This document shows, in pieces, positions 52,658-52,937 of a DNA stretch of 64,000 nt. The DNA comes from Escherichia coli (lineage in GTDB: Bacteria; Pseudomonadota; Gammaproteobacteria; Enterobacterales; Enterobacteriaceae): NCBI RefSeq assembly GCF_044324875.1, contig NZ_CP172185.1; one strand, given 5' to 3'. How positions within the stretch are numbered: position 1 is the first letter of the stretch; each line of letters opens with the position of its first letter. Made by a program: the position numbers and the translations under genes. The notes below the pieces were generated by a model. It had not been told where the DNA came from. It did no database searches and saw nothing but the letters and a program-made list of their open reading frames with translations.

Positions 52658-52755
52658 CCCCCTCACCGCCATCTTTAAAGAAGAGCTCGTACGAAGGTAC
52701 GGGCTTTTTTTTCGTATATTGCACACACCGGGGGGATGAGAAGCCCCGACCGGGG
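52658..52755 (+). repeat. Direct repeat copy 1 (about 98 bp): tRNA-Ser-like 3' end CCCCTCACCGCCA plus terminator hairpin
   Basis: CCCTCACCGCCA matches the acceptor 3' end of enterobacterial tRNA-Ser (recalled); hairpin GCTCGTAC-GAAG-GTACGGGC followed by T8; no full tRNA upstream. Confidence 0.55.
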
Positions 52756-52835
52756 TTCGACAACTGGCGACAGCCAGTTGGACAGACCGTGAACGCAGTG
52801 AGCGGGCTGCCCGCAGGGCGAGCGAAGCGAGTCAA

Positions 52836-52937
52836 TCCCCCCCTCACCGCCATATTTAAAGAAGAGCTCGTACGAAGGTACGGGCTTTTTTTTTCGTATA
52901 TTGCACACACCGGGGGGATGAGAAGCCCCGACCGGGG
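52836..52937 (+). repeat. Direct repeat copy 2 (about 100 bp), near-identical to copy 1
   Basis: Same 3'-end-like motif and hairpin-T9; preceded by a degenerate T-arm-like sequence (GAGTCAATCCCCCC). Confidence 0.55.

Follow-up and report, generated by a model that had tools for sequence, protein, structure and literature searches.

The islands OI-43 and OI-48 of Escherichia coli EDL933 and the SRL-PAI are flanked by a perfect 14-bp direct repeat, TGGCGGTGAGGGGG (PMC3064760). In these islands a P4-family integrase gene is found beside a cryptic ser'X, the intact serX lies at the opposite end beside ycdW/ghrA, and integrase-dependent excision between the two repeats has been reported for all three (PMC3064760). 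The stretch of E. coli DNA examined here (64 kb, hereafter the window) contains the same repeat, read from the other strand as CCCCCTCACCGCCA, where it adjoins the upstream region of a gene for a P4-family integrase with the Pfam architecture Arm-DNA-bind_3, Phage_int_M, Phage_integrase. We read the segment 52658-52938 as the right junction (attR, ser'X) of an ~80 kb island integrated at serX, followed by the native serX 3' flank, and put the probability of this reading at about 0.9.

A blastn comparison with K-12 placed the start of the K-12 homology exactly at 52658, and from the core onward 281 bp matched, at 98.6% identity, the 3' flank of serX in that strain, where the site is empty. The island/backbone boundary is 52657/52658. 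A first-pass annotation of the window had already marked this region as the boundary between an island and the backbone, lying between a P4-type integrase gene and a DUF2726-like gene and phoH, and both statements hold; all three genes are on the minus strand (Table 1). It had also taken the 12-mer CCCTCACCGCCA for a tRNA-Ser 3' end and the whole for the remnant of an attachment site at a serine tRNA gene. Both points are borne out, as the 14-mer CCCCCTCACCGCCA aligns exactly to the 3' ends of K-12 serX and serW, and its first occurrence, beside the integrase gene, is the published repeat. The arm between the integrase gene and the core presumably carries the int promoter and arm-type sites.

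Table 1. Features at and around the serX island junction, in window coordinates
Feature	Coordinates	Strand	Remarks
P4-family tyrosine integrase gene, 402 aa	51289..52497	-	Transcribed away from the junction; Pfam domains; 97% identity to the PAI-CFT073-serX integrase
Integrase-proximal island arm, attP-derived	52498..52657	.	Kept beside the core in GDSC2239PM and CFT073; missing from K-12
attR core, cryptic ser'X, CCCCCTCACCGCCA	52658..52671	+	Same as the K-12 serX 3' end and the published 14-bp direct repeat
serX terminator, original copy	52672..52715	+	Hairpin 52677-52712, T8; -20.5 kcal/mol, z = -5.4; bidirectional in form; same sequence 3' of K-12 serX
Complete RtT-type unit, predicted to be structured	52716..52852	+	RF00391, 46.3 bits; -59.4 kcal/mol, z = -3.1; covariation over 50 homologous units
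Pseudo-tRNA 3' end, AATCCCCCCCTCACCGCCA	52834-52852	+	Closes the RtT-type unit
Terminator, second copy	52853..52897	+	T9; -20.5 kcal/mol, z = -6.3
Start of second RtT-type unit, truncated	52898..52938	+	Array breaks after GACCGGGGT; K-12 homology stops at 52938
Segment with DUF2726-family gene (CDS 52946-53632)	52939..54175	-	1.2 kb in place of the 10.9 kb pgaD-pgaA-dgcT-IS3-ycdU of K-12 (blastn; PGAP names in relatives)
phoH	54219..55283	-	First core-backbone gene common to K-12; then efeB, efeO

A repeat search of the window found two near-identical copies, at 52658-52756 (99 nt) and 52839-52938 (100 nt), with a start-to-start distance of 181-182 nt. A single substitution (C versus A at 52673) and one additional T in the T-run separate them. 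Two direct-repeat families returned by the search together make up the two copies, the second including family D2. Both copies open with the last 14 nt of the tRNA-Ser(GGA) encoded by serX and serW in K-12, followed by a strong terminator hairpin. Exact matches to CCCTCACCGCCA in the 64-kb window were found only at 52660 and 52841, and allowing one mismatch gave three matches against 0.51 expected, a number reached in 0 of 100 shuffles. The plus-strand terminators were missed by the consensus scan and confirmed by folding, which gave the same energy for the two hairpins with their runs of 8-9 T, and on the minus strand terminator-like sites were flagged at the same two hairpins. Neither ARAGORN nor the Rfam tRNA model at gathering thresholds detected a tRNA, intact or degenerate, anywhere in the 64-kb window, as the first-pass annotation had stated. 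Its description of two repeats, each with the 12-mer and a GC hairpin and T-run, was likewise correct, but the ~100-bp unit that it proposed was not, the true period being 181 bp. The repeat is best described as 1.55 copies of a 181-bp tandem unit and not as a ~100-bp unit with an unrelated spacer.

The same array is found where there is no island. In K-12 MG1655, serX is uninterrupted by an island and is followed by 3.5 tandem copies of the 181-bp unit, the tRNA end being present four times; AATCCCCCCCTCACCGCCA closes each unit and is followed by the same terminator, and it is to these units that the array in the window is 98.6% identical. Tandem arrays of this kind form the native flank in E. 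coli and in many Enterobacteriaceae, and the unit is made up of an intrinsic terminator, a structured RNA module of the RtT family and a duplicate of the 19 nt that end tRNA-Ser(GGA). Of 5426 complete E. coli genomes, 3769 had the 181-nt unit, at 1-12 places each (median 2), and PGAP labels it 'RtT sRNA'. K-12 serW, searched as a second array site, is followed by the same terminator but by no RtT unit. The break point of the array differs among K-12, CFT073 and the window, and in CFT073, where the junction has the same layout, 0.6 unit remains. The distal end of the array is, by this comparison, an apparent hot spot for deletion and insertion. As many strains carry islands at serX and in some, CFT073 among them, most of the array is gone, the serX units seem dispensable.

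Two further observations concern the serX and serW loci. In E. coli SCPM-O-B-8794 (locus L032, minus strand), the first unit after serX has GGGGTTCGA fused straight to ATCCCCCCCTCACCGCCA, so that the ~73-nt middle is absent and a tRNA-like T-arm runs directly into the acceptor end. This variant looks like the product of recombination between the GGGGTTCGA of the unit and the T-arm of the tRNA. In the K-12 serW region (L006), a CRISPR-DR4 repeat relic (50 bits) was found at 1254-1281, just 3' of the serW terminator and between clpA and infA.

The stretch between the copies, together with the second tRNA-like end, corresponds to the match to RF00391 (RtT RNA), which is marginal against a gathering score of 45 bits; the K-12 serX units scored 46.3, 46.3 and 36.1 bits. 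The locus is serX, so the unit lies outside the tyrT operon, and we assign the repeat to the RtT family as a serX-type subfamily, not to rttR of tyrT. None of the papers searched linked RtT with serX, and no sigma-70 promoter was found inside the unit. When species-representative genomes were scanned with a pattern drawn from the conserved core, 89 loci were recovered. The units were found ~60-70 nt downstream of a tRNA on the same strand, as located by ARAGORN, and for tRNA-Ser(GGA) this was seen in dozens of enterobacterial species; the stretch between the terminator and the unit was not conserved across species. Among the 130 units with an upstream tRNA, this tRNA was Ser(GGA) in 108, Ser(GCT) in 12 (Pseudoalteromonas), Tyr(GTA) in eight, and Arg(TCT), in a Paenibacillaceae MAG, and Ser(CGA) in one each. 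The end of the unit repeated the last 14 nt of the upstream tRNA, with at most two mismatches, in 86 of the 130.

When 50 distinct units were aligned, the one in the window among them, the consensus comprised a closing helix, one hairpin of GAA.CCCC/GGGGUUC, a second hairpin, one of CCC-triloop-GGG, and a stem bordered by tandem G-A/A-G pairs. The third hairpin was variable, and MAFFT with RNAalifold left its fold undecided. Cells of the alignment that fall on consensus pairs were paired in 94.5% of cases, against 88.6 +/- 0.4 in shuffles and 38-60% in slid controls, and compensatory change was seen at 14 pairs, against 6.5 +/- 1.7 in shuffles, a number that none of 500 shuffles reached. The search pattern overlaps part of helix 2, which is invariant there by construction; helices 1, 3 and 5 do not depend on the pattern. 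In at least seven sequence contexts the closing helix has a 5' strand that changes with the 3' region of the neighbouring tRNA, the strands including GGGGGG/CCCCCC, GGCGGGG/CCCCGCC, GAGGAAGGG/CCCTTCCTC, GGGGAAGG/CCTTCCCC and CCAGGAGGG/CCCTCCTGG. These patterns support the prediction that the unit forms a structured RNA, and the closing helix may have arisen by inverted copying of the tRNA end. A ribozyme was considered, given the resemblance of GAUGAG to a hammerhead core, and was rejected when a permissive Rfam scan (E up to 10) returned no ribozyme family.

It is possible, and we put it forward only tentatively, that the class of structured tRNA-trailer RNAs formed by RtT-type units is far wider than one would gather from the tyrT rttR entry, with a closing helix that tracks the 3' end of the neighbouring tRNA. 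If so, their function or the mechanism of their formation would depend on the tRNA-like 3' end, for example through maturation by the tRNA 3'-processing machinery.

Outside the Enterobacteriaceae, RtT-like units were found in the Paenibacillaceae MAG (L046, ~1600-1710, minus strand) and in three Pseudoalteromonas loci (L045, L064 and L088), with closing helices that match Arg(TCT)/Ser(GCT). The Pseudoalteromonas unit scored 41.9 bits against RF00391, below threshold, and the Arg-linked unit had no RtT match in Rfam at E up to 0.01. Some of the units behind tRNA-Ser(GGA) (in L049, L050, L056, L066, L091 and L093; 205-209 nt) contain a ~75-nt insertion, CACAAAAATGCCGGGAGCATTTTTGAAC...GGGCCGAGTAACGG, similar to the central part of another type of unit, found in L030, L081 and L016, and units of this kind would therefore be modular or nested.

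Instead of a host RNA gene that unequal crossing-over has amplified, the units might be footprints of a small integrative or mobile element that targets tRNA genes and, as it inserts, duplicates the tRNA 3' end. The order tRNA end, intervening sequence, tRNA end is the layout expected of integration at a tRNA 3' end, the shared block opens in the T-loop (AATCC...CCA, 19 nt), and homologous units stand behind Ser-GGA, Ser-GCT, Ser-CGA, Tyr and Arg-TCT tRNAs, each with matched ends. However, the compensatory changes in the hairpins are typical of a selected RNA structure, the units are syntenic 3' of tRNA-Ser(GGA) across the Enterobacteriaceae, no recombinase was found associated with them, and away from tRNA genes only truncated copies were seen. 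We regard an origin from such an element as unlikely.

In the first-pass annotation the copies were remnants of an attachment site at a tRNA-Ser gene, duplicated when islands integrated in tandem or one after another, and the body of the tRNA had later been deleted or rearranged. The 14-mer is indeed a genuine att core. Tandem island integration is also known for other elements, SGI1 reportedly being one example. This explanation nevertheless fails both of its defining tests, because the DNA between the copies has no similarity to either island arm, being the conserved RtT unit, and because the duplication is present in K-12, which lacks the island and has its four tRNA-end copies at the same 181-bp spacing. 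The relatives described below, moreover, retain an intact serX at the other end of the island. Taken together, these observations make successive integration very improbable and leave the loss of the tRNA unsupported.

In relatives, the intact serX lies at the opposite end of the island, the distance being 33 kb in GDSC2239PM, 113 kb in CFT073 and 76 kb in GF4. GF4 (L099) is 100% identical to window positions 1-645 and 1956-7613, the gap being a single IS insertion, and window position 1 corresponds to L099:43702. The intact serX of GF4 is at L099:13625-13712, ~30.0 kb to the left, and the identity of GF4 to the left part of the window would place serX ~30 kb to the left of position 1 in the source genome as well. 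The GF4 island is ~76 kb, and the window contains only the right 52.6 kb. Eight E. coli genomes, GF4 among them, span window positions 28000-52700, with coverage of 89% (seven) or 88% (one) and identities of 99.0-99.8%; where the match was in two pieces, the uncovered part agrees in size with the IS21 insertion described below.

In line with this, blastn against K-12 found no ghrA or ycdX sequence within the window, and the second core, located within the intact serX in GDSC2239PM, CFT073 and GF4, was not found in the window. The attL of GDSC2239PM reads serX...CCCCCCCTCACCGCCA followed by GATTACAAG, with a hairpin and T-run of its own on the island side, and is also written as ...CCCCCCCTCACCGCCA followed by GATTACAAGCGCATGTTATTGTTTAACATGCGCTTTTTT..., while its attR consists of ...CAGGCGGT, CCCCCTCACCGCCA and TATTTAAAG in succession. 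The junctions of CFT073 have the same layout. As the tRNA-Ser of GDSC2239PM is joined directly to island DNA, the island supplies a replacement hairpin and T-run, and the original terminator goes with ser'X. The absence of the tRNA is probably an effect of the window edge and not a deletion, a view that for the source genome itself is drawn from its relatives.

A different arrangement was seen in E. coli VE-T9 (L004), where 2460-12242, set against 28372-29160, shows a second phoH with pgaDCBA and a GGDEF gene on the far side of the island, in an orientation opposite to that of the backbone phoH. This layout suggests that an IS brought about an inversion or a duplication around the serX island.

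The internal pseudo-3' ends could in principle be secondary attachment sites, the island having entered at, or moving between, copies in the array, as every unit has the full 14-bp core and indeed 19 nt of tRNA end, but this is highly unlikely, for the island abuts serX itself in GDSC2239PM and GF4, and a chimeric query joining the end of a unit to the left end of the island gave no match with at least 80% coverage in any of 5426 genomes, all matches starting at a genuine tRNA; the 5' strand of the T stem beside the core is missing from the pseudo-sites, which could explain why they are not used.

The reading that we favour, a single junction followed by the native array, leads to the following scheme. 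The P4-family integrase of the island would have recombined attP with the 14-bp core (attB) at the 3' end of serX. At the far end, the island would have given serX a new 3' end and a new terminator, so that attL would take the form of the intact serX, then GAT(A/T)T...GCGCATGTTATTG, and the original serX 3' end, its terminator and the array would have moved to the integrase end of the island. Because recombination between attP and the core would have displaced the serX 3' end together with the array, the first copy would be the displaced genuine tRNA end and terminator, and the second the next unit of the array. Copy number in the array presumably changes by unequal crossing-over or slippage, with deletions at the distal end. 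Transcription arriving from either side, such as that of the DUF2726 gene, could now be terminated by the two hairpins. With ~80 kb of island separating it from the serX promoter, the RtT-type unit is probably silent, and any function that depends on its tRNA-like 3' end would be lost or re-wired here.

On the backbone side, 449 of 5426 E. coli genomes share the junction of integrase gene, array and DUF2726 gene. The + strand at 54224-54417 gave a Ysr251 match (191 bits) antisense to and inside the phoH CDS, which recurs in phoH of another species (L043) and is probably due to the conservation of phoH itself, not to an RNA gene of its own. On the island side, a 2.6-kb IS21-family element at 48630-51267, with an IstA-like ORF at 48750-50396 and an IstB-like ORF at 50170-51168, splits a DUF3987-family gene in the conserved integrase module of the island and is absent from the relatives; a 6-bp overlap at its junctions suggests a target duplication. 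ALIL pseudoknot matches (112-116 bits) at 1504-1620, 11149-11265, 18463-18579, 19862-19978 and 27302-27418 mark five IS3-family copies with frameshift pseudoknots. The first of these copies is the 1310-bp insertion relative to GF4, at 646-1955, and its length, the only property compared, is that quoted for IS629 (PMC3064760). A group II intron catalytic domain (RF00029, 64.9 bits) was found within the island at 24690-24776 on the minus strand, beside a 364-aa ORF (25208-26302, minus strand).

The feature is real, was correctly located and is ordinary, since known biology already accounts for it. The lesson for annotation is that a tRNA 3' end repeated beside an integrase gene does not have to imply several integrations or the loss of the tRNA: the serX repeat is native, and the intact tRNA is found at the other end of an island that exceeds the window in length. 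The island is identified as a PAI of the serX type, its integrase and core both being known ones, and the chief value of the result is a clean island boundary. The view of RtT-like tRNA trailers as widespread, structured and matched to their tRNA would matter only with experimental follow-up.

Compared with known tRNA trailers, the unit in the window is closest to the tyrT RtT, or 178-bp, repeats (RF00391; rttR in K-12). Both are ~180-bp tandem units that trail a tRNA and end in a 19-nt copy of its 3' end, and they have in common the core GATGAGAAGC..GAC..GGTTCGA...CCCG.AGGGCGA...GAGT.AATCC and a closing helix formed with the pseudo-tRNA end. The unit in the window follows serX and not tyrT, however, and scores 46 bits, whereas the classical RtT units of the K-12 tyrT locus score 133-137 bits. 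An intrinsic terminator stands directly after the CCA in every serX-type unit, while none was seen in the tyrT repeats, and the middle hairpins of the window unit are different and longer. A tRNA-Ser(CGA) and the start of the RtT-like unit downstream of it (L098) match sX4 (RF02223) at 106 bits, so that tRNA-Ser trailers of this kind are already catalogued elsewhere as sRNAs; the K-12 serX region matches sX4 weakly, at 34 bits against a gathering score of 70, and is not a member.

The closest described islands are OI-48 and OI-43 of E. coli O157:H7 EDL933, the SRL-PAI from Shigella flexneri 2a and PAI-CFT073-serX. Their cargo differs from that seen in the window, which consists of raffinose/sucrose-type sugar genes, a type I restriction-modification system and IS elements, with no ter or ure genes seen in the window. 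The backbone flank differs too, with a DUF2726 gene in the window and ycdU in those islands, and the 97% identity of the integrase was measured against that of PAI-CFT073-serX. The 14-bp core of all four is identical to that in the window, and the serX/serW islands have a P4-family integrase at the ser'X end, as here, with the intact serX by ghrA (ycdW) at the other end. On its sequence, the junction belongs to the known serX/serW family of island attachment sites.
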